Counted from the first letter of the stretch, positions 41,027 to 61,288 are shown. The stretch: DNA of 64,000 nucleotides from a virus (IMGVR_UViG_3300028805_000086:1-64000), one strand, 5' to 3'. Translations and numbers: made by a program. Notes: a model not told the origin generated them from the letters alone.

Positions 41027-41272
41027 ATGTTCTATTTGTTTACCAAATTCCCTATAAAGATTAAGGATCAAGGAAAACGAGTTGGCGAAATCTCAAAAAT
41101 GCTTTCAAAGCATGGATCTAAGATTAAATATACTGAAATATACACGATTGGACTTCAAAGTGCAGTGATTAGTTTTCAAAAGAAGCACGGCCTTGAACCA
41201 ACAGGTGTAGTCGACAAAACTACTTGGAAAGCCCTTCATAAGAAAATCAAAATGGAAGTAAAAATCGCATAG
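41027..41272 (+). CDS. Peptidoglycan-binding-domain protein
   Basis: AVISFQKKHGLEPTGVVDKTTWKAL. Confidence 0.75.
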   Translation: MFYLFTKFPIKIKDQGKRVGEISKMLSKHGSKIKYTEIYTIGLQSAVISFQKKHGLEPTGVVDKTTWKALHKKIKMEVKIA

Positions 41273-41305
41273 GAAACACCTTCTTTAATGAAGGAGGTGT
41301 CTATT

Positions 41306-41491
41306 ATGACATTAGAGAGAGCAATCGAGTTGTTGAAGATTGAACAGGCTTGTGTTGAGCGCAATACTAAAGGATGTGATAGGAATTGCGCAAAATGTGA
41401 TCTTGTTCAAAAAGATTGGGAATTGCTAGACATGTATCAATATGTCATAGACAAAATATCTGGTGATATTTATAAGGCCGTCGTTCGGTGA
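41306..41491 (+). CDS. Small Cys-containing hypothetical protein
   Basis: CDRNCAKCDL; after motif 41265. Confidence 0.7.
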   Translation: MTLERAIELLKIEQACVERNTKGCDRNCAKCDLVQKDWELLDMYQYVIDKISGDIYKAVVR

Positions 41492-41570
41492 ACACGGCTT
41501 TATTTTTTTCTCGCATGATCAACATGTTTATTAATGGAAGGAACTATATAAAAAAAAGGAGGTTTTATCT

Positions 41571-41702
41571 ATGTTTACAACAATTATGATTACGACATTT
41601 ACTGTTATAGGAATTGCCACTACATACAAGAAAGTGGTAGACAAAACGACAAAAATGGCGAATGCATATTTAAAGTATAGAAAAGAAAATTCTGATAAAT
41701 AA
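41571..41702 (+). CDS. 43-aa membrane peptide
   Basis: aggagg RBS; MFTTIMITTFTVIGIATT... Confidence 0.6.
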   Translation: MFTTIMITTFTVIGIATTYKKVVDKTTKMANAYLKYRKENSDK

Positions 41703-41787
41703 TCCTTCCAAAAGAGAGTCAAACATAGACTCTCTTTTTTGCCTCGCACGATCAACATGGCTATTAATGAAAGGAAGGTGTTAAAAA

Positions 41788-41949
41788 ATGAAGATGGAAA
41801 AAATAATTAAAAGAATGAAGAAAGAGTTAGAAAGAAGAGAAAGGAAGACTAAAAAACTGGAAAACCAACTGGATTCACTTCTGGCTGAAGCTATGAGAAT
41901 TACAGAATACGGCTTTAAGGAAGAAAAAAAGGAGGTTACTAAAGTGTAA
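41788..41949 (+). CDS. 53-aa coiled-coil peptide
   Basis: aggaagg RBS; MKMEKIIKRMKKELERRE... Confidence 0.6.
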   Translation: MKMEKIIKRMKKELERRERKTKKLENQLDSLLAEAMRITEYGFKEEKKEVTKV

Positions 41950-42050
41950 AGGGCTTTGCCCTTTCTCTTTTTCTCAAACATGGACTATATTTTTTCGCAT
42001 ATGAAACATGTTTATTAATGGAACCTATAAAATATAAGGAGGTATCTTTT

Positions 42051-42200
42051 ATGTTCACAAAGTTTTGCAGTGTTGTAGGTGCAATAGTGGTAGGAGCTAT
42101 TGGTGGAATACTGTTAGTAGGAGTTATGGACAAAGTAGAGATGGTGTACCTTAAGTTTACAGGTGAAAAGAAGAAAAATGTAAAATTAGAAGAAAAATAA
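42051..42200 (+). CDS. Small membrane protein
   Basis: aggagg RBS; hydrophobic N-terminus. Confidence 0.65.
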   Translation: MFTKFCSVVGAIVVGAIGGILLVGVMDKVEMVYLKFTGEKKKNVKLEEK

Positions 42201-42307
42201 ATGATAAAAAGCAGGCAAAACATGTCCTGCTTTTTTTTCGCATGCCGAACATTTGTATTAATGGAAGATCTTATGATCTTACTAAAAACATTAAAGGAGA
42301 AATAAAC

Positions 42308-42754
42308 ATGAAAGAATTATTAGTAAGACCGATATTCAAGACTCATGGGTTTGAGTCTGGCAAGGAGATTACGGAAGAAGAATTTGAGAATCTTAAAGAA
42401 GAGTTTATTTCTATGCATAATTGTTTTGCTCGTTTAACTAATCCATTGATGGATAAAATTAATGAATCATGGGCGAATTATGAAGAGATTGAGGAGATGT
42501 CGAAGATAATAAATGTTTCATCATCGCTCGATCAGATACGTAAGGCTATGGAAATTAATGATAATACAAGATATTGTGATTGGGTAAAAAAGTGGTATGA
42601 CGAGGTATGTAAGGAAATGGAACGGCTTCCGGATATAAAGAAGTTAAATATTAGACCGTATATCTTTATTGAAGATGAGAATCCAATTCTTGGAGCTCGG
42701 TTGAAGCAAAATGAAAATTGGTGGTTTGAAATGTTTTTAAAAATGATCGAATAA
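42308..42754 (+). CDS. Hypothetical protein
   Basis: aaggag RBS; cassette gene. Confidence 0.7.
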   Translation: MKELLVRPIFKTHGFESGKEITEEEFENLKEEFISMHNCFARLTNPLMDKINESWANYEEIEEMSKIINVSSSLDQIRKAMEINDNTRYCDWVKKWYDEVCKEMERLPDIKKLNIRPYIFIEDENPILGARLKQNENWWFEMFLKMIE

Positions 42755-42831
42755 GAAAATGGCGGTTGAAACATACCGCCAATATTTTTCGCATATGAAA
42801 CACTTTATATAATGAAAGGAGGGCAAATAAT

Positions 42832-43221
42832 ATGCCAGAGAAAAAGACGTTTAAAGATTTTATTAAAGGATGGAAGGACAAGGAATCTATCAAAGACAAA
42901 ATCAAAAGAGGTTTTCGTAAAGGAAAAGAAAAACTGGTTAACACTGTAAAGTGGATCAAAGAGAATCCGCAAGAAGCTGCGATTTACGCTTCTATGATTG
43001 CCGGTCTAACTGGCGTTTTAAAGAAAGGCCTTAGGCATGTGAATCTGAAGCAGGAGCAGCGTATGAAAGATCGGTATATCTATGATTTTAGCAATAGGTG
43101 TTATCTTGAGACAAGAAGAAAACTGAATAGGAATGATGTAGTAAGTATTAATAGGCTTCGTCGCGAACATCCAGGAATGAAGATGAGTGAAGCTCTGGAA
43201 TACTTAAATTTGCTCAAGTAA
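42832..43221 (+). CDS. Hypothetical basic protein
   Basis: aggagg RBS; cassette gene. Confidence 0.7.
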   Translation: MPEKKTFKDFIKGWKDKESIKDKIKRGFRKGKEKLVNTVKWIKENPQEAAIYASMIAGLTGVLKKGLRHVNLKQEQRMKDRYIYDFSNRCYLETRRKLNRNDVVSINRLRREHPGMKMSEALEYLNLLK

Positions 43222-43332
43222 CAAATAAAGCGGTTGAAACATACCGCTTTAATTTTTTGAAAATAGGTCCAAATGACTGGATAAATGTGGTGAATTATCA
43301 TTATTGACCCGCGTAAGAAACACGGTTATTAA

Positions 43333-43424
43333 TGGAATAAGAACCAAAGAAAGGTTATGTAATGATAGACCCGCGTCTATCGATAATTGCAAGTGCGGAC
43401 TTGCGACATATCCTTTCTTTTTTT
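43333..43424 (+). ncRNA. Putative small structured RNA 1
   Basis: After motif 43309. Closing stem gaaaggttatgt/acatatcctttc encloses hairpins gatagac/gtctatc and gcaagt/acttgc; T-tract follows; no convincing ORF. Confidence 0.6.
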
Positions 43425-43470
43425 CAAAATGGAAGTAAAAATAACCTCGCACCATTAACATGTTTATTAA

Positions 43471-43665
43471 TGGAAGAAGTAAGGATAAACCTTGAAGCGG
43501 TCGTATACAGGAATGTATGAATCCGCGCGAAGAAAGTGGATAAATCAAGGAGGTGTCGTATGCAGACATGCATGAATCACTAGCTTCTAAGTAAAAAGGA
43601 GATCTGAAATGATCTAAGGAGAGTTAATAGCTATAACTCGAAAGCAACACGCCCTTTTTATTTTT
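43471..43665 (+). ncRNA. Putative small structured RNA 2
   Basis: After motif 43447. Two copies of a tcgtatRcagRNatgYatgaatc hairpin; several (A)GGA motifs; only very short ORFs. Confidence 0.5.
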
Positions 43666-43688
43666 TCGCATATGAAACATATTATATA

Positions 43689-43871
43689 ATGAAGGAAAGA
43701 TTATTCAACCTTAAGACACCAAAGTGTGGGATAGACGATTGAGATCTATTTGGATTTTAAATCCCCTGAATAATCATAAGTGCTTGCGGAGGCAGCCTTC
43801 ATTGGCTATGTTACGACTAAGTGTCGTTGGTAAGCTTAAGCATGCAGCTTAGCACATGGATTATATTTTTT
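43689..43871 (+). ncRNA. Putative small structured RNA 3
   Basis: After motif 43666. atgaagg/ccttcat and gattattca/tgaataatc close a multi-hairpin domain; no convincing ORF. Confidence 0.55.
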
Positions 43872-43926
43872 TCGCATGATCAACATGGATATTAATGGAG
43901 TAGAAATATGAAAGGAGAGAACAATT

Positions 43927-44133
43927 ATGTTTTTAATTATATTTTGGAGTATAATAGGGATCATAACATTATACGGCTACGTTATTGTAGCAAAAGAATG
44001 CGTATGGGAATTATATACTGATCAGCATATGTTTGAGAACAATAAAGTGCTGAAAGTAATAATGAGCGTAACGTGGCTTGTTACATTCTGGCCGTTTATG
44101 TATGTAATTATTTATAGAGAAATTAAAAAGTGA
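43927..44133 (+). CDS. Small two-TM membrane protein
   Basis: Two hydrophobic segments; RBS aaggag. Confidence 0.7.
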   Translation: MFLIIFWSIIGIITLYGYVIVAKECVWELYTDQHMFENNKVLKVIMSVTWLVTFWPFMYVIIYREIKK

Positions 44134-44159
44134 TTTTAATCAAATATTAAATAATCTAC

Positions 44160-44214
44160 TCCGGAAATAAATCCGGGTAAGGACGAATTAAAAACTCGGA
44201 TTTATTTTTTTCGC
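44160..44214 (+). repeat. ~50-bp duplicated hairpin/spacer, second copy at 49811
   Basis: tccggaaataaatccgggtaaggacgaattaaaaactcggatttattttt identical at both sites. Confidence 0.9.
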
Positions 44215-44263
44215 GTATCGAACATATTTATTAATGGAACTAAAAATGAAAGGGGATAACAAT

Positions 44264-44488
44264 ATGAATGACATGATTGAGCTTCTTGAAACATTGAACG
44301 AAGGATGTGATGTGCTTAGTAAAGCACGTGATCAATATGATAAAATTAAGGATAATTTGATTTTTACAACTGAAGATGGTAAAAAATTTTTAGATCTTTT
44401 GGGATCAATGATCAAAAATACTAATCTAGGGACATTACAGTTCGGAATTATGATGCTAAAGTATCAATTATACAATAAAAATAAATAA
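44264..44488 (+). CDS. Hypothetical protein
   Basis: Cassette gene with RBS. Confidence 0.65.
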   Translation: MNDMIELLETLNEGCDVLSKARDQYDKIKDNLIFTTEDGKKFLDLLGSMIKNTNLGTLQFGIMMLKYQLYNKNK

Positions 44489-44595
44489 TTTTGGTTCCAT
44501 AAAAGCGTACACAAAACGTGTTACGCTTTTTTTTCGCATGATCAACATGGATATTAATGGATAGAATCCAAATAAAATAGAAAGGATGAGGAAAA

Positions 44596-44886
44596 ATGAC
44601 AGCAAAAGAGTATCTTGACAAACTTGATAAAATTGAAGAAAAGAGGTGCAAAAAATTAGCTCTCGATGGGTACAAGTGGTTCTATATTGGGTATATGTTT
44701 GGAAGCGGATATATCCATGATGAAACAAACAACCAAGAAGCTAAAGAAATGGCAAATGAAATTTTAAAGACGTATAAGGATAATCTTGATGTTATTATGA
44801 AAGAATGGATTCTGCCAATAACAAATGAAGAAAATGAGGCAAAAGTTCTAAAATTATGCGAAATTATTCAAAATCTGAAAGTATAA
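44596..44886 (+). CDS. Hypothetical protein
   Basis: Cassette gene with RBS. Confidence 0.7.
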   Translation: MTAKEYLDKLDKIEEKRCKKLALDGYKWFYIGYMFGSGYIHDETNNQEAKEMANEILKTYKDNLDVIMKEWILPITNEENEAKVLKLCEIIQNLKV

Positions 44887-44969
44887 AATATTAATCGTAT
44901 AAAGGGCATTTTGCCCTTTTTTTTTTCGCGTATGAAACACTTTATATAATGAAGGAGGTGGCTTGTATA

Positions 44970-45272
44970 ATGAAAGCTACGGAAGTTGTAAGAAAAGCTA
45001 TATTTGGAATGTATTCGATAGAAGAATTAAAAGAACAGCAAAGGACAATATTCCTTAAGGATATCGATGAACAGTATAGTGACTTTGTAATAGACCACAT
45101 ATTTACAGATAAAGGCGATGGCGTGTTCTATTTCATAGTAGGACTATATGTTATAGATAAAGGGCATTTTGTTCCTTTGTACATTGGAACAAATATTGGG
45201 TATACTTCTAAAGAGCTCGTAAATGAAGCAGCTCGAGTTATAAAAGAAGTCATGAAAAGTTTCAAAAAATAA
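44970..45272 (+). CDS. Hypothetical protein
   Basis: aggaggtg RBS. Confidence 0.7.
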   Translation: MKATEVVRKAIFGMYSIEELKEQQRTIFLKDIDEQYSDFVIDHIFTDKGDGVFYFIVGLYVIDKGHFVPLYIGTNIGYTSKELVNEAARVIKEVMKSFKK

Positions 45273-45360
45273 AGAAAATGCCCACAAAACGTGGGCTCTT
45301 ATTTTTTTTCGTTTACGAAACATGCCTTCTAATGAAAATAATCATTAGGAGGATTTTAAA

Positions 45361-45618
45361 ATGTATGTGATCATTGAGACTCGTAAACAAAAACGAATGC
45401 CTAACGATGATTTTACCGTGCTGTGGACAATTCCATGTCGTGGTTTTACTAGTAAGGAAACGGCGCAAGATTATTTAAAAGGAAATGAGATTTTTAAGAA
45501 ATTGTTGTCAAATAGTAAACAGCATTGGAAACTATCTGAAAGCAGTAATAATCATTTAGTATTCGTTAATGAGTATGGTAGTATTTTAATGGATTACATG
45601 ATAAAACCTAAGGAGTAA
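45361..45618 (+). CDS. Hypothetical protein
   Basis: aggagg RBS. Confidence 0.7.
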   Translation: MYVIIETRKQKRMPNDDFTVLWTIPCRGFTSKETAQDYLKGNEIFKKLLSNSKQHWKLSESSNNHLVFVNEYGSILMDYMIKPKE

Positions 45619-45738
45619 TTATTATAAATAAGAGCTCCTGAAACAAGGACTCTTATTTTTTTTCATTCAAAATGGAAGTTGTACGAAAGTGTACGGACGT
45701 TTTTAAAACATTCTCCAAAACGAAAGGGGAGTGTTGAC

Positions 45739-46872
45739 ATGGAACTTCAAGATATTTATGATTTATTGGAATCGCACCTTGGCAATGGAATATTAAACCG
45801 CTCAAACGAGAAAATGAAAAGAGTTAAACTTCCGATTCCAAAGGAATATGGTGGCGGATGGGCAACTGGCGATACCACAGAAGATGCTATCCGCAACATG
45901 ATTAATCGTTTAAATCTGAAAATTAAAAAAGAAACGCCGTTATTTTCTGATTATGCTAGCAAATGGTTAGAGATAAAGAAAGGCGAGGAACGATCGGAAT
46001 CAACAATTAAGAACTATGAATTCATACTCGAAACTCGCCTTAAACCATTTTTCGAAAATAAGAAAATTAATGAGATTACAGCCGATGATGTACAGCTATA
46101 TTTTAACAGTATAATAGATCTCAGCAAGAGTATGAGCGTGCAAAGTAAAGCAATACTCAGTGGAATCTTCGAAAGAGCAGATCGTAATGGTCTTGTTGAC
46201 AGAAATATTATGAAATACAAGTATCAGACTAGCTCTAAAACTGGTGAGAAAGTAGTTCTCCAGGATGATGAACTCATAAATGTTATTGATAAGCTCGAAG
46301 ATTTGTTATCGACAGGCGACGTACGAGACTATCTATACTTCTGCTTTTTGTGTTTTACAGCGCTTCGAAGAGGGGAAATTCTGGGTCTTAAATGGGCAGA
46401 TATCGACTTTGATAACGATTTGATTTACGTGAATCGCAATGTTACGTTTCCAAATGGCGAAAATAATTATCGAATTGGCAAGCCTAAAGATGGTAGTTCT
46501 GGCATTGTGCATCTTCAAAGTGGATTAAAAGATCATATTCTCAGTTATAAAGGTTCTTCTAAAGAGTACATCATATATAATAGGAAAGAATTCAAAATGG
46601 AACCAATAACCAGGAGTATGTTTTCTAAAATGTGGTATAGATGCCAGAAAGTTCTGGATCTTAAAGGTGCAACGTCACATAGTTTCAGGGCGTCGTATGC
46701 TACGATGATGAATGCGCATTGTGATCACATTGATCCTAAGGCTTTACAGGGAGCTTTACGACATAAAACGCCAGATTTGGCTATTAAAGTCTATACGAAA
46801 GAGAATCATGATAAAACCAGAGCTGCTGAGAAAGAATATGATGATTGGCTTAAGCGAAATTCCGCACTCTGA
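45739..46872 (+). CDS. int: Tyrosine recombinase/integrase
   Basis: SAM-like core-binding region; catalytic TALRRGEILGLKWADIDF, K (PKD), HSFR, LRH, VY. Confidence 0.95.
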   Translation: MELQDIYDLLESHLGNGILNRSNEKMKRVKLPIPKEYGGGWATGDTTEDAIRNMINRLNLKIKKETPLFSDYASKWLEIKKGEERSESTIKNYEFILETRLKPFFENKKINEITADDVQLYFNSIIDLSKSMSVQSKAILSGIFERADRNGLVDRNIMKYKYQTSSKTGEKVVLQDDELINVIDKLEDLLSTGDVRDYLYFCFLCFTALRRGEILGLKWADIDFDNDLIYVNRNVTFPNGENNYRIGKPKDGSSGIVHLQSGLKDHILSYKGSSKEYIIYNRKEFKMEPITRSMFSKMWYRCQKVLDLKGATSHSFRASYATMMNAHCDHIDPKALQGALRHKTPDLAIKVYTKENHDKTRAAEKEYDDWLKRNSAL

Positions 46873-46905
46873 ACACGCCTCTTAATGAAAGGAGGCGAAT
46901 ACGCC

Positions 46906-47298
46906 ATGTTAGAAAAAGAATTAAAAAAGATTCAGGTAGGTACAGGTAAAAAAATAACCGATGATGAGGTCTATTTGAGAATTGAAGACCAATATTCAAT
47001 TACTGGTGTTTTAAATCTGTGCTGGCTTAATGAAGAAGAAACTGAAAAACTAATAGGCTATTTGCAAGAATCAAAAAGGAGACTGGAAGAAAAAAGAATT
47101 AAATTGAAAGAAATAATTAGTACTACAGATTTTAGCAAAATGTATATAGAATTTGAAAGTAAGTATAATAAGTATCCGGTTACGATGGCTCCTTATGAAG
47201 CATTTGGATGTGCACATAAGGATAATCTAATAGACGATGATACATATTATGCAGCGAGTAAATATTATGGAAAAATGTGGAATTATGTTGGAGACTAA
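46906..47298 (+). CDS. Hypothetical protein
   Basis: aggagg RBS; motif 46862 overlaps the int stop codon. Confidence 0.7.
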   Translation: MLEKELKKIQVGTGKKITDDEVYLRIEDQYSITGVLNLCWLNEEETEKLIGYLQESKRRLEEKRIKLKEIISTTDFSKMYIEFESKYNKYPVTMAPYEAFGCAHKDNLIDDDTYYAASKYYGKMWNYVGD

Positions 47299-47403
47299 TT
47301 TCTTTTGGAAGATCGAACACCGGTCTTCCTTTTTCGCGCAAGAAACACCTCTTATAATGAAGAAACCGTAGGTTTCTAATATTATAATAGGAGGTATCTA
47401 AAA

Positions 47404-48307: not shown

Positions 48308-48415
48308 AAATAGGTATTGAAAAAGATTGCCCACAAAACGTGGGCTTTCTTTTTTCGCATCCAAAACACGGCTAATAATGGGAAACCAATAAATAATTTA
48401 AGGAGGAATCTAAAA

Positions 48416-48616: not shown

Positions 48617-48701
48617 AAGATTGCCCGCAAAACGCGGGCTTTCTTTTTTCGCACTTTAAACATTGCGATATATGGAATGATATTTTAAAGGAGGTTTTAA
48701 T

Positions 48702-50218: not shown

Positions 50219-50268
50219 ACAACACGGGTTCTTTTTTTTCGCACATCAAACATGTTGCTAAATAGGAG

Positions 50269-51197: not shown

Positions 51198-51300
51198 TTT
51201 ATTAAAGAGGTCGCAAAACGCGGCCTCATTTTTTTTTTTCGCATACGGAACACGCTGCATAATGGGAGTAATCCTAATATATTTTAAGGAGGAATCTGAA

Positions 51301-52093: not shown

Positions 52094-52462
52094 ATGGACA
52101 GCATGTTTGCGTTTGTTCTTGGAGAAATGAATCGGCACAAAGAGCTGATGGTGTTCGATTGGGACAAAGCAGCAGAGATCATTAAGGAAAGAAAAGCTAC
52201 CAGTGCTATTGCTGGGTTACAGAATGATCTCGAATGGACGGGAGGACATATTTTGGACGGAGGGAAACCAATTGCTGATTCATATACGTATTTATCATCG
52301 ACTTGGGCTATGCCTGTTTTAATTCTTGATGATGAATATGAAGATGAAATACCATGTTTCAAAATGGAGCATGAAACAGCATATACTTGCGATACTAAAT
52401 GGCCTAATTCAGCATTAAACATTTTAGGATTAACGAAGGAGGATTTTGTATGCAAGGAATAA
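52094..52462 (+). CDS. Hypothetical protein
   Basis: VFDWDKAAEIIKE...AGLQNDLEWTGG; aggagg RBS. Confidence 0.75.
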   Translation: MDSMFAFVLGEMNRHKELMVFDWDKAAEIIKERKATSAIAGLQNDLEWTGGHILDGGKPIADSYTYLSSTWAMPVLILDDEYEDEIPCFKMEHETAYTCDTKWPNSALNILGLTKEDFVCKE

Positions 52463-52830
52463 GACCATGCCCCTATTGTGGAGGAGAAGTCGAGGTTGTC
52501 AAATTAGTAAAAAGAAAGGAAGAGAAGAAACCACCGTATCGAATTCAGTGTCTTAAATGTAAAGCGCTTGTCGCTCGAGGCATTGGGTTTCCAAATGAAT
52601 CAGTTGCTGAGGCAAAAGAAAGAATCCAGCAGTATGACGAGGTAATTGCTAAGAAAATGGGGCCACTTGGGAGTCGAGATACAATCTTAACTGCTGCAGC
52701 AAAGCGTCGTGATATCATAAAAGCAAAGGCTATTTTGGTTGATAAGAATGATGCGGTTTTTGACATTCATGATGCAACAGGATCCTTTGGCCACACTGTT
52801 CGAGGTGGAACTGGCAAGTTCGAACATTAA
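52450..52830 (+). CDS. Zn-ribbon protein (Lar-like N-terminus)
   Basis: IRPCPYCGG...IQCLKC. Confidence 0.65.
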   Translation: MQGIRPCPYCGGEVEVVKLVKRKEEKKPPYRIQCLKCKALVARGIGFPNESVAEAKERIQQYDEVIAKKMGPLGSRDTILTAAAKRRDIIKAKAILVDKNDAVFDIHDATGSFGHTVRGGTGKFEH

Positions 52831-52849
52831 ATTCAAAATGGAGGTAAAA

Positions 52850-53227
52850 ATGAACTATCAAAAGCAAATATTTGATAATTTAATACATCAACTTAAAAAA
52901 TATGTCGACGATGAGACTTATGTTGATGTAGGAATTGGCGCAGAATATTTGTATCGCGTTTCCAGAGAACGGTTATTAAAGGCTGTTAAAGTATTGCAGA
53001 ATGAAGGTTATTATGTCACTTCAATAAGAAGTAAAGTAAAGCATATGGGTAATATTAAGCTTTTATCTAAAAATCCAATAACAGCTGAGGAAAAAATCGT
53101 TCATGTTTTGGAATGGAATAATAATAGAGTTAACATTCGACTTGAAGCTGAATATACAAAAAGGGTTAATCGGAATTATCGAGATTGCATGAGACTTTTA
53201 AAAAATCGATTAAATGAAAAGGAGTAA
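52850..53227 (+). CDS. Hypothetical protein with winged-helix-like segment
   Basis: VDVGIGAEYLYRVSRERLLKAVKVLQNEGY. Confidence 0.65.
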   Translation: MNYQKQIFDNLIHQLKKYVDDETYVDVGIGAEYLYRVSRERLLKAVKVLQNEGYYVTSIRSKVKHMGNIKLLSKNPITAEEKIVHVLEWNNNRVNIRLEAEYTKRVNRNYRDCMRLLKNRLNEKE

Positions 53228-53233
53228 TGAATT

Positions 53234-53836
53234 ATGGAAAGTTTGAAGAAAGTTCTTAATGAGGATGCTATTCGTGGTATTTTGGCTCGTACTTATGGTG
53301 TTACTGTTGCTGACGTTGATTTGCACATGGGTACGGACGAGGAAGGAAGCAGCATGATTGAGGCCATTATTTATCAGACTCATGAGCAGCTTGAGAATAA
53401 TATAGCTGAAACTATCGCGTGCAATATGTATCATCCGAATAACGAAAAGGCGATTGAGGAAACTCGAGAAGAACTTCGGAATATGCTTCAGAAAATTTCT
53501 AGGTTGTATAATAAAGAGGAAATGGGAGAATTCCTTACGAAATACTATGACGAGGAAGGATATCCTAAGACACAAAAAGCTCATAATATTGTTACAGGCG
53601 ATGCGGTAAAACTGGCACGTGATGTTATGAGAAGAGGTGGAACTAAAGAGGAAGTTAATCTGGCTCTTACTTATCTTATGCTATGTATTAATTCGCATAA
53701 GCATAAACTCAGCGTGTATAAGTTCCGCCAGGAAAATGATATTCAGAATCTTAGGAAAAAGTATCAGCCTAATCGGTTTAAGAAGCATATCATTAAAGCG
53801 GTTGATGATCAGATGACTGATGATCCAACAGAATGA
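53234..53836 (+). CDS. Hypothetical protein
   Basis: aaggag RBS; GGTKEEV...INSHKHKL...ENDIQNLRKKYQ. Confidence 0.7.
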   Translation: MESLKKVLNEDAIRGILARTYGVTVADVDLHMGTDEEGSSMIEAIIYQTHEQLENNIAETIACNMYHPNNEKAIEETREELRNMLQKISRLYNKEEMGEFLTKYYDEEGYPKTQKAHNIVTGDAVKLARDVMRRGGTKEEVNLALTYLMLCINSHKHKLSVYKFRQENDIQNLRKKYQPNRFKKHIIKAVDDQMTDDPTE

Positions 53837-53920
53837 TCGCACAAGAAACATGGATTTAAATAGGAAGAGATGACAAAACGTCGTCTCTTCTATTTTTTCA
53901 AAATGAAAGGAGAAAGGATT

Positions 53921-54523
53921 ATGTTTGGGAAAATCGGGGTTGCTATTAGTAGTTGCGCATTGGCGGTTGCGTTGACAAATCTGGTTCTCGCTTATAAGGA
54001 AAAGAAAAAGCTTGAGAAACAGATGAATGATCATGAGAAAATGGTAAAGAACATGGTTAAGTCTGCTGATAAGGCAATCGAAGATCTCTCTGAAGATATC
54101 TCCGTTGATATCAAGGACGAAATTGTTGAAAAAGCAATGAAATTGGCCATTGACAAGGAAGTTACGATTACGGCACGGAATGCTGCTACCGAAGCAAAGA
54201 ATGATATTCGTGCCGACATCTCCAGTATTATTCGTAAAGAAGTTCAATCGCAAAAAGATCGCATCGTCAATGATGTTGATCAAAAACTGGTAGATGAAAT
54301 TAGTAAGATTTCAAAGAATGACATCATTGATGATATTCAAAGGAAAGTATCTGGCGAAATCATTGATAAAATTGATAAGAATCTCTCAAATATGAGGGAA
54401 ACCTGTGAGAAGAAGCTTAAGGATAATGTTGATTCCCTCACAAGAGATGCTCGTAATCGTATGGACATTTGGCTCGATAATTATAAGAGCGATTATATTA
54501 CCTGGCGTTATCGGCGCATATGA
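53921..54523 (+). CDS. TM + long coiled-coil protein
   Basis: N-terminal TM; heptad-rich body. Confidence 0.75.
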   Translation: MFGKIGVAISSCALAVALTNLVLAYKEKKKLEKQMNDHEKMVKNMVKSADKAIEDLSEDISVDIKDEIVEKAMKLAIDKEVTITARNAATEAKNDIRADISSIIRKEVQSQKDRIVNDVDQKLVDEISKISKNDIIDDIQRKVSGEIIDKIDKNLSNMRETCEKKLKDNVDSLTRDARNRMDIWLDNYKSDYITWRYRRI

Positions 54524-54605
54524 GTATTCAGGGGCTGTGAAATTAAGTAGCAGCCCCTTTTAAAATAGATATTTTAGAGAAAGGAGCATGTATTTAAACT
54601 AAAAA

Positions 54606-55070
54606 TTGAGTATTTCAAGAATGGAGGGATGCAAACCCAAGAGCATCAGAGGAAGACAACTTAATAAGACGACAACCATTTACAACAAAGGATATGAAGT
54701 AGAAATTGATATTGTACCAGATATTGGTACACCGGCGGTTGATGACGTATTCGATAAAGTCAATCGCAAGTTAGCACTCGGCAGGAGTGTTAGTCTTTCA
54801 GATATTCAGGATATGCTAGGAGTTAAAGGAAGTCGTAAAAGCGATGGATACTGCCTGGATCCTAATATTATGAGAGATTCAGAGATGGATTACGATTGGC
54901 AGTATTTGATTGACTATGATCCCTATTTAGGAAAAACAGTGTACGGACGTAAAGTCATTATATGGGGGTTGGTTAATCAGAAACGTAAAATGCCAAGCGA
55001 TGTTCATAGAAATAAGAGAAGAACTTATGAATCGGATGATAATTTCCGATTTGATGAAACCGCCTTATAA
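54606..55070 (+). CDS. Hypothetical protein (start uncertain)
   Basis: 154-aa ORF; the upstream RBS/ATG is in another frame. Confidence 0.55.
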   Translation: MSISRMEGCKPKSIRGRQLNKTTTIYNKGYEVEIDIVPDIGTPAVDDVFDKVNRKLALGRSVSLSDIQDMLGVKGSRKSDGYCLDPNIMRDSEMDYDWQYLIDYDPYLGKTVYGRKVIIWGLVNQKRKMPSDVHRNKRRTYESDDNFRFDETAL

Positions 55071-55086
55071 AGAAAGGAGAATCAAA

Positions 55087-55362
55087 ATGGAAGGCGTTTA
55101 TTATAAATGCCCTAATTGTGGGAGCTATGTTTCGGACAATTCTGAAAAAGATATTTTGAAATGCGAACATTGTGGAACGACTATTACAAAACCATATACG
55201 TGGTATGATAAAAGCCTTCAATTTCTTTATAGGCGAGCAAAAGCTAAAGAAAAATTGGAGCAGGAAAAAATAGCCCGCGAAGCAAAAGCCGCAAAGATTT
55301 CTGCATGGGGGCTTTGCATCACGTTAGTCTGCGCGATTATTATGGTATTAATATTTGCATAA
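55087..55362 (+). CDS. Zn-ribbon protein with C-terminal TM
   Basis: CPNCG...CEHCG; hydrophobic C-terminus. Confidence 0.75.
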   Translation: MEGVYYKCPNCGSYVSDNSEKDILKCEHCGTTITKPYTWYDKSLQFLYRRAKAKEKLEQEKIAREAKAAKISAWGLCITLVCAIIMVLIFA

Positions 55363-55438
55363 TGTCGCACGAGAAACACGTGTATAAATAGGAGATAACG
55401 AAACGTTGTCTCTTTAATTTTTTACAAATTGGAGGAGA

Positions 55439-55960
55439 ATGAAAACTATGGCTAAGACTAAACGAATGAAGGAATTCAAGGAACGGCTTAAGAGGAATGG
55501 AGAATTCTTTGTAGGCCAAATCGAGAAATCCAAGATGGACCAGTGCGACGAATTTATTGATAAACTGGCCAACATTCTTGGTGACAACTATGAGATGGTT
55601 GCCTCATGCAATAAAGACCTTAGCCGGTATCTCGTTCCTAAAGGAACAAAAGATCAGATTACTTATTATGGAAAACCTGAAATGAGTTTCCGAGTAAGTG
55701 ATCATTGGAACTGGTATTCCAGTACAGAAAAGTGTACGAATGAGCGCTATGTTCAGTGCTTCAGCATGGACCTCCCCAATCCTCGTCCAAGACCGGCTCC
55801 TGGTGTAGGCACCAATGCAATCAGTGCGTATCAGGTCGCTATCCAAGTGGACGGACGATACCATCATGTATTCGGCGACAAATATAATCGTCGAATTCGT
55901 AGATGGGAATGGGAAGAAAATGATCCGGAGAAAATTCTCCAGCAGTATAATTTGATTTAA
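55439..55960 (+). CDS. Hypothetical protein
   Basis: SRYLV...SFRVSDHWNW; ggagg RBS. Confidence 0.75.
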   Translation: MKTMAKTKRMKEFKERLKRNGEFFVGQIEKSKMDQCDEFIDKLANILGDNYEMVASCNKDLSRYLVPKGTKDQITYYGKPEMSFRVSDHWNWYSSTEKCTNERYVQCFSMDLPNPRPRPAPGVGTNAISAYQVAIQVDGRYHHVFGDKYNRRIRRWEWEENDPEKILQQYNLI

Positions 55961-55967
55961 CAAATTC

Positions 55968-56462
55968 GATGGCAGCTAATGTGATTTACTACTTTTATAA
56001 AAGATTGATAAAGACAATCGCATAATTACGCCATCCCGTAAAGCACTGGATTCTAATCTTAAAAGCTAAATTGGCTTACTTCACATAATACTTTAAATAT
56101 TAAATAGTCAATTAATTTCTTTACAGATTAGAAACCAGTCATGAGGAAGCTATTCAAACTTACTACTACTTTTAAAAAGATGCTTAAAAATAGTTTGAAA
56201 ATCTCTCCTCAAATCACCTCCTTTATTCCTAGCTAGTGTTGCTTACTTCATTGGCGGATATGAAGCAGCACAATATCAGGAGGTGCACTATTCTGGAAGG
56301 ATCTTGGCAGCTAACATAATTTACTTCATAATTATAGATTTTTTATTATTCAATTATGTGCTTTCGCCAAGGTCCTTTCATTTCCTTTCTTTTTTGTAAG
56401 CTAACAGGGCTTACTTCACATAAATAAATTAATTTAATTCAGTCCTGTAATTTTATGCAAAA
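55968..56462 (+). ncRNA. Tandem array of six structurally identical RNA stem-loops
   Basis: Each unit: P1 stem, AGCTA, 8-bp P2, loop beginning TACT(T/A)C, P2', ~6-nt linker, P1'. AGCTA at 55974, 56064, 56148, 56231, 56309, 56399. Confidence 0.85.
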
Positions 56463-56488
56463 ATGATATTTGAAAGGAGCAAATCAAA

Positions 56489-57580
56489 ATGGAAAAGATT
56501 TTTAAGGACTATCTGTTTCAGCATCATATTTTGGTGTCTGAAAAAGAAGGCACTATTGGTGAGGCCTTCAACACAATCACTGCTCTAGCGAATGTTTACA
56601 GTATTCGCATTGTTAAAGGAGCAAAATATGCTTGTGAGAGCATGCTGCAGGATGCAGCCGATAATTTAGGAGATCGTGTACCAGAACCATTTTACAGAAT
56701 GTTTCCTAACTCTGTCAGAGCGATGACACCGGATCAACTGCTGTACGATCAGCTTTATCACTATACTCAGACGTATGGCATGGGCTGGTTCGATGCTCCA
56801 GCGGGGCATTCTATTTTCGAAGAAGAGACTCCTTCAGAAATGGCGGATGAGTCTAATCGCGAAAAATTCTTCGATAAAATGGTCGTAGAAAAATCCGAGG
56901 CTAAGAATTTTGTGATCATGACCGAAGACGATGCCGTTGCTAAATTGGTTGAATATCTTCGTGAATTGATCGAAAGTCCTCGACCTCTCAATGAAGGGCA
57001 AATGCGTTTTCTTTACGAAGGATTCATCAAATATGATACGGCAATTACTGCTAATACGAATATTCCTTGTAAAAGAATCGCAGTTGAGCTTTTCTATCTG
57101 ACAAAGAGTATTGTATTTGCTAAAAAGCTTAAGCTTAGTGATACCATTAAGCTTGTTGAATATATTCAGAATAACTTGTATGGAAGTACCGATCTTAAGA
57201 AGCTTAATTTCAAGAATAAAGATCGGAAATTAATCACTGCTTTTATTGATTATCATCTTTCCGCTGAGCATTTTGAAGGTTATAAAGAAGTTCGGAAAGC
57301 CTTCAATCAGCGTAAAATTTGGTGCGGCTTGCTGCATCATATTCATTATAAACCGAAAGGCCGGATTGCTCAGAAGTTTGTAAAAGATATTCGTGAAGGC
57401 AAAAATCAGTCTTTGAATAGTGGTTTCGAGCGGTGTATGCGCCATGATCGACCTGTAGAAGCTGCTGAATACCTTAAGAACAATGAAGGAAGCGGTGCAC
57501 TTATGAGAAATATGAATTATATTCTCAGTCGCTGCAAGAACGACAAGGAGATTGAGGAGGTGATCTCATGTCTGGAGTAA
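56489..57580 (+). CDS. Alpha-helical TROVE/Ro-like protein (tentative), N-terminal half of a TerD-associated family
   Basis: EPFYRMFP, LYDQLYHY, LNFKNKDRKLI, GALMRNMNYIL; overlaps the next ORF. Confidence 0.6.
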   Translation: MEKIFKDYLFQHHILVSEKEGTIGEAFNTITALANVYSIRIVKGAKYACESMLQDAADNLGDRVPEPFYRMFPNSVRAMTPDQLLYDQLYHYTQTYGMGWFDAPAGHSIFEEETPSEMADESNREKFFDKMVVEKSEAKNFVIMTEDDAVAKLVEYLRELIESPRPLNEGQMRFLYEGFIKYDTAITANTNIPCKRIAVELFYLTKSIVFAKKLKLSDTIKLVEYIQNNLYGSTDLKKLNFKNKDRKLITAFIDYHLSAEHFEGYKEVRKAFNQRKIWCGLLHHIHYKPKGRIAQKFVKDIREGKNQSLNSGFERCMRHDRPVEAAEYLKNNEGSGALMRNMNYILSRCKNDKEIEEVISCLE

Positions 57581-58638
57581 ATCCTATTATTCTTATTCAG
57601 ATGCTGAATCAGTATCATAACTATAAAGAAGGGAATCGTATTTTCAGATTTGTTAAGAATAATCTTATGAAAGTGCATACTGAAACCGATAAAGAAATGG
57701 CTAAGCGCAAGTCTGTTCTTAGTAAGAAGACAAGAGATGTTGCAGCAAGGGCCATTCGGAATCGGCTTGACAAATACCTTGATGGCAAAATTGGGAATCT
57801 TTATATTTCTGATAAGATGAAGAATATTACAGTGCCGCTTCAGCTCAGTACGAGTGAAAGCGGTTATGGCGTTCTTTCTACAGGAAGTCGGATTGATATT
57901 CCTGAAGGCCGGTTTATCAGAGCATTCACTTATTGGGAAAAGGTAAACGACATTGATATTTCCGGATTTGCTATCAAGGAAAACGGGGAGCAAATGGAAT
58001 TTAGCTGGCGTAATATGTGGTATAAGCAAAGCGAAGAAATTTGCTTCAGTGGCGATGAAACTAACGGATATTATGGCGGAAGCGAATACTTCGATATTGA
58101 TCCAGAGTTATTCAAGAAAAATAATCCCGACTACAGATATATCGTATTCTGTGATAATATTTATACCAGTGGTGGTTCCATTCATTTTAAAGATTGCGAG
58201 GCAACTGGTGGCTTCATGATCCGTGAAAAGATGGAACCGAATACTCGTGGATACGGAAGCGAGGGAAAGACTTTCGAGATATTTGATCCGAAGACGGTAG
58301 AGACCTCGTTCAAACTGCAAAGTGATTCGTCATTCTGCTATATGTTTGCGATCGATCTCAAAAATAGGCAAATGGTTTGGCTTGATATTTCCAGAGAAGG
58401 AAATCATGCAATTGCCGGAGATACCAGTATGAGATGGCTGTTGAACTATATGTCCATGACAGAGGTATATAGCGTATACGATTTGTTTGTATCAATGTGC
58501 ACAAATCATGTAGAAAATCCGAAATACGCGGATATCCTGGTTACGGACGAACCTGATATCAAGCCGATCAAAGAAAATGCCATACTTATCCACAGCTGGG
58601 ATACTGAAAAAATATTTAAGTATCTTCAGGTTGGATAA
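57568..58638 (+). CDS. TerD-like domain protein
   Basis: GSRIDI...IRAFTYW...DIDISG...FSGDETNG...GSEYFDID...FDPKTV...IDLKNRQMVWLD. Confidence 0.7.
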   Translation: MSGVNPIILIQMLNQYHNYKEGNRIFRFVKNNLMKVHTETDKEMAKRKSVLSKKTRDVAARAIRNRLDKYLDGKIGNLYISDKMKNITVPLQLSTSESGYGVLSTGSRIDIPEGRFIRAFTYWEKVNDIDISGFAIKENGEQMEFSWRNMWYKQSEEICFSGDETNGYYGGSEYFDIDPELFKKNNPDYRYIVFCDNIYTSGGSIHFKDCEATGGFMIREKMEPNTRGYGSEGKTFEIFDPKTVETSFKLQSDSSFCYMFAIDLKNRQMVWLDISREGNHAIAGDTSMRWLLNYMSMTEVYSVYDLFVSMCTNHVENPKYADILVTDEPDIKPIKENAILIHSWDTEKIFKYLQVG

Positions 58639-58725
58639 AAAACTGTTCACTATTTGGAAAGTAGATAGCTGTGAACCCGCTAGATTGGCTGGTAATGATC
58701 ACTATCTATTCTCCATTTTTATCTG

Positions 58726-58764
58726 AAAAAAAGGGTGTGCAACCAGCATGCCCTTATTTTTTTT
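58726..58764 (+). terminator. Rho-independent terminator
   Basis: aagggtgtgc...gcatgccctt followed by a T tract. Confidence 0.7.
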
Positions 58765-58873
58765 GACTTTTATTTATGGTCATATTGACCGCGTACTAAA
58801 CACGTTTAGTAATGAAGGAACAATATAGTTCTTTCGGTCAAAAATACAAAAAAGAGAAAAGGAGTAATGAACT

Positions 58874-59242
58874 ATGGAAAGCAAGGTATTAAGTTATGTG
58901 TATTTTAAAGGGATTCAAACGGGATATAAAGACGTGACAGTACCTGACCCCGGACGGTATATGAAAAATCTACATAGGATTGAGGCAAATGGATTTTTTA
59001 AATATATCGATTATGCGGGCCAGTTTACCGCAACGATCGAAGGAAAACCCGGTATTTATTATGGATATAGCATTATTGCTAATAGAGAAATTACAAAAGA
59101 AATATTAAATTTGATCGACTATGACTATTCAGAGTCCTTCGATATGGAAACTAATGAAAAATTAGATAAAGATTTAGGAACATTTGATGACTATTTGAAA
59201 GAAATAGCAGACGAAATTTGGTCTGAAGTGACCAGAAAATAA
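58874..59242 (+). CDS. Hypothetical protein
   Basis: aaggag RBS. Confidence 0.7.
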   Translation: MESKVLSYVYFKGIQTGYKDVTVPDPGRYMKNLHRIEANGFFKYIDYAGQFTATIEGKPGIYYGYSIIANREITKEILNLIDYDYSESFDMETNEKLDKDLGTFDDYLKEIADEIWSEVTRK

Positions 59243-59257
59243 AAGGAGGAAATTACT

Positions 59258-59740
59258 ATGGAAATCATGGGAATTCTGAAAGAATTGGAGCTCGAATTGG
59301 TTGAGCAGAAAACCCTGCTGGATGAGCAGGAAACAAAACTCGCGGAATGCGAGAGAATTGCCGAAGAGGCACTTGCGGCGGTTGACGCCGTGACTAAGAT
59401 GCGTAATTGCATCAAGGAGCGCTATGAAGCGCTGGCAAAGGCCAAGGAGGCCTTAAGCGGGATTGATATCCCGACGGAAATAAAAGAAATCGAGGAAAAA
59501 ACCACTGAAAAGGTGGAAAAGACAGGAAAGACGAAGCGGATCAAACAGATCCAGTGGACCCGTAAGAACGGGACATTAGTCCGGTATGACCGGAACGGAA
59601 AAGAAATGCAAAAGTTTGTGTCGCAGAAAGCGGCAGCAAGAGAACTGGGATGGGACCAGTCAAGTATGAGCATTTTTGTGCGTCTTAAGCCGGAAGAGCA
59701 GATCCGGCGTAAAGGATTTTACTTTAGGTGGATCCCGTAA
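59258..59740 (+). CDS. Coiled-coil protein with NUMOD1-like HTH
   Basis: RYDRNGKEMQKFVSQKAAARELG...GFYFRW. Confidence 0.7.
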   Translation: MEIMGILKELELELVEQKTLLDEQETKLAECERIAEEALAAVDAVTKMRNCIKERYEALAKAKEALSGIDIPTEIKEIEEKTTEKVEKTGKTKRIKQIQWTRKNGTLVRYDRNGKEMQKFVSQKAAARELGWDQSSMSIFVRLKPEEQIRRKGFYFRWIP

Positions 59741-59843
59741 TGGGATCCGGTATAAAGGTGAGTGCGGTTTGTGCTTGCCTTTATATTTTTTCGCGTAAGG
59801 AACATTTCTCTATATGAGAAATGAAAGAAAGGAGGTGAAAGCA

Positions 59844-60176
59844 ATGTTTGTTAACCTGACACCCCATGCGATTAACATCGTAGATGAGGCGAATCAGGTC
59901 ATCAGGACCTTCGTTTCGGAGGGAGTGGCTCGTGCCGCCCAAAGAACCGAACTCGTCGGCGAGATCGACGGAGTACGGATCACGAAGAGCGCTTTCGGAG
60001 AACCGGTAGATTTACCGGAGTACCGAGATGGCGTTTTTCTGATCGTATCTCTGGCTACGGTCAACGCCGCTCGAGCTTTCGGTCGTCGGGTGGACGATCT
60101 GCTCATTACGAACGAGGCCGTTCGTGATGACCAGGGTCACATCATCGGGTGCCGATCGCTGGGCAGGGTGGATTAA
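59844..60176 (+). CDS. Conserved-looking hypothetical protein
   Basis: VNLTPHAINI...LPE...LIVS...VRDDQGHIIGCRSL; locally GC-rich. Confidence 0.75.
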   Translation: MFVNLTPHAINIVDEANQVIRTFVSEGVARAAQRTELVGEIDGVRITKSAFGEPVDLPEYRDGVFLIVSLATVNAARAFGRRVDDLLITNEAVRDDQGHIIGCRSLGRVD

Positions 60177-60278
60177 GGCAGGCAAGCATGCCTCCACCTT
60201 TTTTTCGCGTAAGGAACACGCACATAAATAGAAAGGAATAAAAACGTTCCTTTTATATTTTTGAAAGGAGAAAGGACC

Positions 60279-60782
60279 ATGCAACAAAGTAAAAAATGGT
60301 ACTCAGAAAGGAACTCAAAGATTTTTCAACGTTATGAAAAAGGAGGCATAACGCTGGACAAACTGGCAAGTGAGTATGAAGTTACTCGTGGACGAATTTC
60401 TCAAATAGTTAATGAAGAAAAAAGCAAACGTAAGAAAATGGACACAATGGTATTTAAACAGGGAGAATGTGTTTCGTTAAGAGATCGCATGGTTGCGGTC
60501 TTTTCTTTTATTGATAATGAAGAATCAAAAGAAAAAATGAGCACTGCAAATGTGAAAAGTTCAATATACTGCGTTTTTAGATATTTAAAATTTAATCGTA
60601 ACATTGCTAATCCGAAAGAAGTATTGAATGAATTTCTTAAGTTTAGGTACGAGGATCTTATTAAGATAAGGAATGTCGGTATTAGAAAAGCATATATTAT
60701 CCAGCGGATTCAAGATGAAATTGAGTCTAACTGGGATAAATATGAAATGTTGTTGACTAAAAATTGTGTAATTGTATGCTGA
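60279..60782 (+). CDS. Sigma-region-4-like HTH + alpha-CTD-like protein
   Basis: ERNSKIF...TLDKLASEYEVTRGRISQIV; DLIKIRNVGIRK. Confidence 0.6.
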   Translation: MQQSKKWYSERNSKIFQRYEKGGITLDKLASEYEVTRGRISQIVNEEKSKRKKMDTMVFKQGECVSLRDRMVAVFSFIDNEESKEKMSTANVKSSIYCVFRYLKFNRNIANPKEVLNEFLKFRYEDLIKIRNVGIRKAYIIQRIQDEIESNWDKYEMLLTKNCVIVC

Positions 60783-60806
60783 AAATTCGAAAGGAGAACT
60801 ATATTT

Positions 60807-61031
60807 ATGAATCTTATTAAATGCAACAAATCAGATTGTTTTCAGAACTATTGTGGAACTAGCTGTAGACTTCTCAATGCGCCTATAACTGATCATGCAT
60901 GTCCGTTTTATAAAACAGAAGCAGAAGTTGATAATGGGCGCATCAAAACACACAATATACTTCTTGAAAAAGGTCGTAAAGATCTGATAGAGCAATATGA
61001 ATACAATCCTTACAGGAGGGGGAGCTGGTGA
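60807..61031 (+). CDS. Cys-rich hypothetical protein
   Basis: DCF...CRLL...CPFYKT. Confidence 0.7.
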   Translation: MNLIKCNKSDCFQNYCGTSCRLLNAPITDHACPFYKTEAEVDNGRIKTHNILLEKGRKDLIEQYEYNPYRRGSW

Positions 61032-61288
61032 TGGAAAACTGGCATCCTGGAACTCAACCGCCTTCCGCTGGTGGGAAATATTTAGTTCTTATTAAGCTAA
61101 CGAAGAGCGTTAATAATGAGTTTGATATTGCTGAATATTATCCGGCACTAGATAAATGGAGACCGTTAACTTACATTGGAACGGTTATATGGTGGACCAA
61201 ATTGCCAAGTAAAAGGCAGTTTGAACTTGCTCGCATCGCGAACACTTCTATAAATGAGAGAAAGCCAATTGAAAGGAGAAGAGTATGA
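61028..61288 (+). CDS. DUF551-like protein
   Basis: WHPGTQPP...YLVL...VIWWTKLP. Confidence 0.6.
   Translation: MMENWHPGTQPPSAGGKYLVLIKLTKSVNNEFDIAEYYPALDKWRPLTYIGTVIWWTKLPSKRQFELARIANTSINERKPIERRRV

Follow-up and report, generated by a model that had tools for sequence, protein, structure and literature searches.

A recurrent one-strand motif of a siphovirus lineage as the putative promoter of its own two-barrel RNA polymerase

We examined the virus record IMGVR_UViG_3300028805_000086 (95,642 bp, rated 100% complete), the first 64 kb of which are referred to here as the window, and concentrated on a motif, YCGC-N6-AACAY-N7-WATR, that recurs with fixed spacing in front of small genes. Judged from sequence, the motif is very probably a promoter, whichever enzyme reads it, and it would belong to a transcription system that is carried by the phage lineage itself. 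Its reader is probably the phage's own 934-amino acid (aa) single-chain two-barrel RNA polymerase, which is encoded at the right end of the same genome. The initial annotation had proposed a promoter for a phage-encoded polymerase or transcription factor. This is the best-supported reading, as a gene with a DFDGD motif is present and the motif travels with that gene across phyla; the naming of the enzyme stays provisional.

The motif and its placement in the genome

In the window, the pattern has 32 exact matches between 41265 and 61256, all on the + strand, against a chance level of 0.01 in dinucleotide-preserving shuffles. The initial annotation had counted 33 copies with constant spacing on this strand; strand and spacing hold, the count drops to 32, and a near-copy at 45309 may be the 33rd. 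A weight matrix built from the aligned copies was then run over the whole genome and returned 38 sites on the + strand, the weak one at 45309 among them, and none on the - strand. Copies past the window lie at 64103, 75578, 76247, 78999 and 91370 (genome coordinates), and there was no site within 1-41 kb, the structural module. The aligned copies define an extended consensus consisting of a T-tract, TCGCRY, N4, AACAY, N5, TWAAT, G or A, and then purines (RAA). The motif is 29 bases long and has three conserved blocks at positions 1-3, 11-13 and 22-24, in agreement with the claimed separation of about one helical turn. The TATAAT at 42808, described earlier as lying 14 nt from the first block, indeed begins 13-14 nt after it in copy 42789.

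A T-tract directly adjoins the motif on its 5' side in 23 of the 38 sites, a perfect-stem terminator hairpin precedes at least 16 of them, and the distance to the next start codon is mostly 14-60 nt, so that the placement first noticed, after the T-tract of the preceding hairpin and before a ribosome-binding site (RBS), is borne out. The same applies to the nearly one-copy-per-gene array that had been described for 41.3-52 kb: 25 of the 27 genes called in 41.3-52.1 kb have a motif copy of their own. Between 39.5 and 59 kb, sigma-70-like matches occur at chance level (74 vs 71 +/- 6.6) and terminator-like sites are enriched about fourfold (40 vs 9.2 +/- 3.2). A unit of the array at 41-52 kb would consist of a promoter, a short leader, an RBS, an open reading frame (ORF) and an intrinsic terminator, the T-tract of which adjoins the next promoter. 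The idea that the ATG of the motif serves as a leaderless start codon was dropped: it is in frame in 14 of 32 cases and the frame is open in 9, which is near chance.

Related phages and the polymerase gene

The layout CGC-N7-ACA-N9-RTR is present on the coding strand in Arthrobacter, Gordonia, Rhodococcus, Microbacterium, Faecalibacterium and Lactococcus relatives. Among the closer relatives, G001, G002 and G003 (polymerases 79, 73 and 75% identical) carry 15, 20 and 32 forward copies, respectively, and no reverse copy. In Faecalibacterium phage FP_oengus, a self-similarity scan that used no prior pattern recovered about 17 copies of GACGCGAAAAAWNCAG-N-CTTTATGGARG in a small-gene array past the integrase, with CGC, ACA and ATG spaced exactly as in the phage studied here. 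Arthrobacter phage Circum has nine coding-strand copies (as TCGCGTAAATTACACGGGCTATAATG), Microbacterium phage Count six forward and one reverse, Gordonia phage Tanis 12 forward and none reverse (pattern matches; 11 clear copies), Rhodococcus phage ReqiPoco6 12 forward and three reverse, and Lactococcus phage 1706 about 12, in the form C(G/A)C...TTTACA...CTATAGTAG. The five copies of Streptomyces phage HotFries (L088, 22690-27067 in record coordinates) keep the first and third blocks, with TCGCA and TAATG-AGACCCCTAC at unchanged spacing, and mostly read TTCC in the middle block; this natural variant would bear on which part of the polymerase reads which block. The pattern read backwards gives 0-1 matches per record. 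Orthologs of motif-preceded genes usually carry the motif in the relatives as well, and the promoter reading, which depends on such conservation, stands in this respect.

The initial annotation had suggested a search for a DFDGD-motif RNA polymerase elsewhere in the genome, and such a gene was found outside the window at 92403-95207. Its 934-aa product matches phrog_4291 ('RNA-dependent RNA polymerase') over the full length with E = 0 and contains the DFDGD loop within SGADFDGDTVLVIP at residues 541-554. D544, D546, G547 and D548 are invariant in 26 homologs, as are the whole catalytic loop ADFDGD and 70-odd other positions. Helix-turn-helix matches lie at residues 58-126 and 903-933, corresponding to two modules at the N-terminal end and one at the C-terminal end. 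An AlphaFold model built with the 26 homologs has a mean predicted local distance difference test score (pLDDT) of 81.9. With this model as query, Foldseek returned QDE-1 (E 9e-9), then plant RDR2, P74 gp62 (7e-6), P32 gp64 (1e-5) and P23-45 gp96 (8e-4), with cellular beta-prime chains ranking below the Thermus phage polymerases; TM-scores are low (~0.3), the structural match covering the core and not the whole chain. The modelled fold appears to be that of a complete two-barrel polymerase and, together with the invariance of the loop, argues for an active enzyme. There was no Pfam match to Sigma70 region 2 in the genome. The tape measure protein (3877 aa) does not contain DxDxD and hence there is no fused virion polymerase in the style of P23-45.

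Homologs from actinophages and from Lactococcus and Faecalibacterium phages share 37-48% identity with the 934-aa protein, and in databases the family mostly goes by the name 'helix-turn-helix DNA-binding protein'. PHROG 4291 has been described as the signature protein of a '1706 family', a putative polymerase with helix-turn-helix ends and DxDGD, which marks a supercluster of actinophages, Lactococcus 1706-like phages and Faecalibacterium phages (bioRxiv 10.1101/842583). The 934-aa protein belongs to this same family, and that paper mentions no promoter.

Motif and gene were linked by two approaches. When 64 loci were fetched by the polymerase protein, about 35 had a motif copy 850-1150 nt upstream of the polymerase gene. 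In the opposite direction, we performed a blind test in which 2.9 million viral contigs were searched with TCGC-N7-ACA-N4-CTATAATG and all 45 matching contigs of at least 40 kb were taken. The polymerase profile found the gene in 44 of these 45 motif-selected contigs and in all 28 that were at least 90% complete; the single miss was 69% complete.

In nearly all relatives the polymerase gene is located at the extreme right end, so that joining of the genome ends puts it just upstream of the structural genes, a position that gives a hint of late expression and packaging. The homolog in phage 1706 (orf75) is labelled 'structural protein', a label taken solely from the GenBank record, and the ReqiPoco6 record has the same label. 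If it is right for 1706, the enzyme could be delivered with the DNA, by analogy with N4, crAss-like phages and P23-45. As a separate observation, the head-module proteins encoded at 1404-2000, 4837-5334 and 5331-5960 begin with a DUF7211-like leader (HHGIRGQKWGE and similar; Pfam below threshold), to which the invariant N-terminal motif SGRYPWGSG of the polymerase (genome 92460-92530) is similar by eye. A capsid-targeting leader common to both was not adopted, given that the likeness is by eye and Pfam gives no link; if the DUF7211-like leader does target the capsid, packaging of the polymerase would fit.

Three small paralogs of polymerase segments are encoded in addition, all with 33-36% identity and none with the catalytic loop. 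Two are given in Table 1 and belong to the first of the operons with a leader terminator, and the third (genome 75816-76223) matches residues 596-654. They may modulate the polymerase.

Start point, reading enzyme and rival explanations

Promoters of phage-encoded polymerases are conserved up to the start point, are AT-rich from -5 to -1 and have a purine-rich beginning. If +1 is assigned to motif position 25, a conserved G or A, the motif would comprise TCGCRY from -25 to -20, AACAY from -15 to -11, TWAAT from -5 to -1 and a purine-rich start (G/A, R, A, A). The 934-aa polymerase would act as the reader: its helix-turn-helix modules would contact both upstream blocks from the same face of the DNA duplex, and the enzyme would melt TWAAT and start at the purine.

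The location of the start is narrowed by what follows the motif. In 29 of 105 sites from four genomes, the Shine-Dalgarno core begins 0-4 nt past position 25, and in these same sites an ORF of 35 codons or more has its start codon 13-20 nt past position 25, as in GATAAT-GGAGGTGATTTAT-ATG. As the RBS abuts the motif in these cases, the start should lie at or before position 26, inside TAATG. Initiation some 7 nt past the hexamer would delete the RBS, and sigma-A geometry is therefore a poor fit, an argument that carries more weight than the base composition and the missing -35 element discussed below. Leader hairpins were also folded from position 12 to place the start by their 5' edges, but the result was too noisy and was discarded.

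Strong hairpins with a T-tract follow at once after six copies that head longer operons (52012, 53837, 55365, 60205, 78999 and 91370), three of which (53837, 55365 and 60205) are of the TAAATA form, and these leader hairpins begin at motif positions 25-28. Such a hairpin with T-tract also follows the motif copy of the polymerase operon in most of 35 distinct lineages; stem sequences differ, and in 27 of the 35 base pairing begins 0-3 nt from position 25. We infer that the leader hairpins are promoter-proximal terminators which would delay the middle and late operons. By analogy with the PR'-tR' logic of lambda, the delay could act by antitermination or by a change in the polymerase. Copy 91370 heads the exonuclease-polymerase operon. 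There is no motif copy and no strong terminator from 91.5 kb across the genome ends to ~10.7 kb, so that transcription from 91370 may also read through the joined ends into the structural genes.

Several points weigh against the polymerase as reader of the motif. That it is the reader is something we infer from co-occurrence, and this may reflect mere shared descent because polymerase-less relatives that could serve as a natural control are missing: the polymerase and the phage DNA polymerase share the same phage records (250 and 253), and no natural knock-out lacking the RNA polymerase is among them. The polymerase gene itself lies behind motif copy 91370, so that the first molecules would have to be brought in by the virion or made from a different promoter. 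Actinophage relatives have a perfect TATAAT as third block, and a genome announcement has read it as a sigma-70 -10 element (PMC9671010). The structural module is devoid of motif copies, and the polymerase might, by analogy with YonO, serve only the late genes from a single promoter.

Some of these points also underlie a different explanation, which we regard as unlikely: the host sigma-A holoenzyme would read the motif, with TWTAAT/TATAAT as -10 element and CGC and ACA as secondary contacts or the site of an accessory factor, and the phage polymerase would be limited to late genes from a separate, unrecognised promoter, like YonO in SPbeta. It draws on the actinophage copies and the many metagenomic copies that read CTATAATG with its perfect TATAAT, on the published reading of the motif in Gordonia phage Vardy (PMC9671010), on YonO, which transcribes one late operon, on the 41-kb structural module without a motif copy, and on the position of the polymerase gene, which is last among the non-structural genes and, with the genome ends joined, lies just 5' of the structural module. 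The base composition of the motif speaks against it. In -10 hexamers of the sigma-70 family, A at -11 and T at -7 are required; with motif positions 19-24 as the hexamer, these would be positions 20 and 24. The base at position 20, the would-be -11, is usually T; A is found in 6 of 38 sites in this phage, 0 of 15 in G001, 2 of 32 in G003 and 0 of 6 in FP_oengus, such that it is missing in 84-100% of sites. A23, in contrast, is invariant in all lineages except for 1706-type sites, which have G, T24 is invariant throughout, and the purine at 25 is constant. Motif copies have no TTGACA 17 nt upstream of the hexamer, the T-tract and TCGC filling that spot, and the TG of ACATG lies 3 nt too far upstream for the register of an extended -10 element. 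Transcription would start within or past the Shine-Dalgarno sequence in the 29 of 105 sites described above. Leader hairpins start at positions 25-28, a CGC/ACA spacing that stays constant from one host phylum to another calls for a conserved reader, and the region shows no enrichment of generic sigma-70-like sites. The unlikeness to a sigma-A promoter that had been pointed out at the start is thus upheld, with position 20 rarely A, no -35 element and an RBS that is too close.

It is also possible to imagine that the motif is bound by the 934-aa protein or a different phage factor, which would recruit or redirect the host polymerase in the manner of T4 MotA/AsiA, without synthesis of its own. 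The protein has three helix-turn-helix modules, one of them like sigma region 4, its family is mostly labelled as DNA-binding, and the phage encodes a fusion of sigma region 4 and an alpha C-terminal domain. We nevertheless consider this improbable, given the invariance of ADFDGD and 70-odd positions in 26 homologs, the modelled complete two-barrel fold and an inferred start inside the motif that does not fit host holoenzyme geometry. The fusion protein (313 aa, 62966-63907, + strand) combines HTH_17, Sigma70 region 4 (Pfam E 2.6e-14) and the RNA polymerase alpha C-terminal domain (E 4.5e-15); its region 4 is about 50% identical to that of RpoD. It has no homolog in the supercluster relatives and was discarded as motif reader, being absent from all motif-carrying relatives. 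Perhaps it targets the RNA polymerase of the host as a decoy or an adaptor. Very unlikely, in our view, is that the motif is no promoter at all and instead represents a stoperator-type operator or an integron-like cassette recombination site. Many asymmetric copies on one strand, an integrase at 45739-46872 inside the array and cargo genes that turn over between relatives would suit such elements; yet lytic relatives without integrase (Circum, Tanis, 1706) carry the motif, its constant place after terminators and just before an RBS is promoter-like, no other promoter type is enriched that could express the array genes, and, in contrast to attC sites, the hairpins have the usual G+C stems and T-tracts.

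Taking the polymerase as the reader, a further-reaching picture can be drawn, which we offer tentatively and hold to be possible but doubtful as a whole. In it, the lineage would have a self-contained orthogonal system, common to phages of Firmicutes and Actinobacteria, in which a single-chain polymerase of ~100 kDa with sigma-4-like helix-turn-helix modules recognizes duplex promoter blocks at -25 and -14 without a sigma factor. The enzyme would be delivered by the virion and transcribe all non-structural genes, reaching its own gene and the late genes only past a promoter-proximal terminator.

Cassettes, comparable systems and significance

All called genes are on the + strand. The left 40 kb form a siphovirus structural module with large terminase, portal, protease-capsid fusion, tape measure, tail proteins and lysin; the size of the tape measure protein (12245-23878, 3877 aa) implies a very long tail. 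The right end encodes a 1441-aa primase-polymerase, a helicase, a Cas4-like exonuclease and the 934-aa protein. Cargo genes of the 41-52 kb array have no orthologs in G001 or G002 and few in G003, unlike the replication and structural genes, which are 40-83% identical to those of G001-G003, and the promoter/terminator frames are kept in G001 and G002 while the cargo differs. The gain and loss of cassettes that had been postulated thus finds support as turnover of cargo within preserved frames in the two closest relatives. Tandem duplication was rejected as the origin of the cassettes, as there is no paralogy among cargo genes. The 'early host-takeover' role assigned to the cargo found no support: the few genes scanned gave only a weak Lar-like match, and a tyrosine integrase sits inside the array. 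This integrase has the ordinary phage domains (SAM-like and catalytic), and its expression may be independent of the motif system. No close relative was obtained by megablast of 41-53 kb against a phage collection.

Positions of motif copies, leader hairpins and further features in the window are compiled in Table 1.

Table 1. Motif copies and associated features (window coordinates)
Feature	Start	End	Strand	Remarks
Motif copy	41265	41293	+	RBS begins 1 nt past position 25
Motif copy	41511	41539	+	After terminator T-tract
Motif copy	41744	41772	+	After terminator
Motif copy	41995	42023	+	Closest to consensus of all copies
Motif copy	42238	42266	+	
Motif copy	42789	42817	+	TATAAT at 42808; RBS abuts
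Motif copy (CCGC)	43309	43337	+	Long ORF-free stretch 3'
Motif copy	43447	43475	+	Long ORF-free stretch 3'
Motif copy	43666	43694	+	Long ORF-free stretch 3'
Motif copy	43872	43900	+	
Motif copy	44211	44239	+	
Motif copy	44534	44562	+	Core same as copy 43872
Motif copy	44926	44954	+	RBS abuts
Weak motif variant (TCGT, not TCGC)	45309	45337	+	5' of gene 45361-45618
Tyrosine integrase, probable ATG 45739	45739	46872	+	After terminator; no own motif copy
Motif copy	46862	46890	+	Overlaps integrase gene 3' end; RBS abuts
Motif copy	47334	47362	+	
Motif copy	48355	48383	+	
Motif copy	48649	48677	+	
Motif copy	49120	49148	+	
Motif copy	49599	49627	+	
Motif copy	49865	49893	+	
Motif copy (TAAATA type)	50239	50267	+	GGAGG from position 26; GTG start 14 nt past position 25
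Motif copy	50664	50692	+	
Motif copy (TAAATA type)	50927	50955	+	
Motif copy	51239	51267	+	
Motif copy	51635	51663	+	
Motif copy	52012	52040	+	Heads operon 52094-53836
Leader hairpin + T-tract	52036	52073	+	Begins at 3' end of motif 52012
125-aa paralog of polymerase residues 137-216	52850	53227	+	35% identity, E 2e-10
200-aa protein, C-terminal half similar to polymerase residues 567-655	53234	53836	+	33% identity, E 1e-8
Motif copy (TAAATA type)	53837	53865	+	Heads operon 53921-55362
Leader hairpin (12 bp, AAAAC loop) + T-tract	53863	53899	+	Directly 3' of motif 53837
Motif copy (TAAATA type)	55365	55393	+	5' of gene 55439-55960
Leader hairpin + T-tract	55390	55424	+	Directly 3' of motif 55365
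Motif copy (CCGC)	58789	58817	+	With leader hairpin
Motif copy	59791	59819	+	
Motif copy (TAAATA type)	60205	60233	+	Leader hairpin + T-tract at 60231-60262
Motif copy	61231	61259	+	Orthologous genes in G001, G002 carry motif too

A few features of the region were observed in passing. At 43309-43871, three successive motif copies are each followed by 90-240 nt that contain no convincing ORF and have no Rfam match; the transcripts may be promoter-driven small RNAs. Rfam and tRNA searches of 40-64 kb were negative overall. A gene-free stretch of about 500 nt after 55960 lies 5' of two genes (363 and 356 aa) without Pfam match within 55968-58638, and this gene pair is kept in G001 at 44-47% identity. 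Terminator hairpins between 41.5 and 53.9 kb have in common an A-rich loop (AAAAC or AAACAT) similar to the AACA block of the promoter (for example at 45280-45296, 48329-48345, 48623-48639, 51207-51227 and 53863-53891), and two of the hairpins are identical. FP_oengus terminators have another common loop, GAGAAATC, and those of P23-45 likewise have a conserved motif. Finally, the 12-mer TCAAAATGGAAG (up to one mismatch) occurs at 19 sites of the window between 7196 and 56495, where 0.94 would be expected, and all of them are on the + strand. Genes often use its ATG as start codon (36380, 55087, 56489), and the 12-mer is also found between some terminators and promoter copies.

Among known systems, Thermus phage P23-45 has two single-chain two-barrel polymerases, the virion protein gp96 and the non-virion protein gp64, each with a mapped promoter motif (PMC10770324). 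Both it and the phage studied here are long-tailed siphophages with a single-chain DFDGD polymerase and a phage-specific motif in many copies before early genes, and in the relatives of each phage motif and polymerase are found together. The two systems have no similarity at the BLAST level and differ in motif sequence; our phage has one polymerase gene, an enzyme with helix-turn-helix modules at both ends and a motif known from sequence, whereas the P23-45 promoters were mapped. YonO of SPbeta is likewise a single-chain two-barrel DNA-dependent RNA polymerase of a Firmicutes phage, encoded just upstream of the late structural operon (PMC5467207). It has one late start site with no defined promoter sequence, in contrast to about 38 non-structural transcription units marked here, and no SPbeta record was among the tblastn matches of the 934-aa polymerase.

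In Vardy (cluster DJ), five copies of a 50-bp intergenic motif were read as a sigma-70 -10 element, with no link to a polymerase or to other phyla (PMC9671010). It is probably the same element, being intergenic, located in a middle region of small genes and containing TATAAT, as compared through the cluster relative Tanis. The PeSL elements of T4-like phages also frame single variable ORFs by a stem-loop terminator and an early promoter and show cargo turnover (PMC2839356, PMC4122927); their promoters are early sigma-70 promoters read by the host, and recombination at the frames has been shown, whereas the motif described here is read as non-sigma-70. The late promoters of the non-virion polymerases of phiKZ and AR9 are TATG, with G as start, and AACA-N6-T(A/G), respectively (PMC5312081). 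These, too, are short promoters of two-barrel phage polymerases extending up to the start, and the words AACA and TATG recur. They differ in that the enzymes are multisubunit, in that AACA is 12 nt away from the inferred start in our phage, compared with 8 nt from the start in AR9, and in the extra block at -25 present here. The array differs from integrons in that it has no attC-type imperfect palindromes, an integrase of the ordinary phage type, and is kept in relatives without integrase.

The protein family as a predicted polymerase (10.1101/842583) and the five Vardy copies read as a sigma-70 promoter (PMC9671010) are already in print. Within our incomplete coverage of the literature, we came across no publication connecting the motif with the polymerase or documenting the occurrence of the motif in different phyla. 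If the polymerase reads the motif unaided, the two would constitute a compact enzyme-promoter pair from a polymerase lineage of the cellular type. As a tool for orthogonal expression, the pair could be functional in both phyla of Gram-positive bacteria, and it would be a tractable model for sigma-free promoter recognition by a minimal two-barrel polymerase, a question also posed by YonO. Terminator-promoter frames around fast-changing cargo would extend the PeSL idea from T4 to a second, unrelated transcription system, and for several hundred sequenced phages a re-annotated gene and a transcription map would follow.

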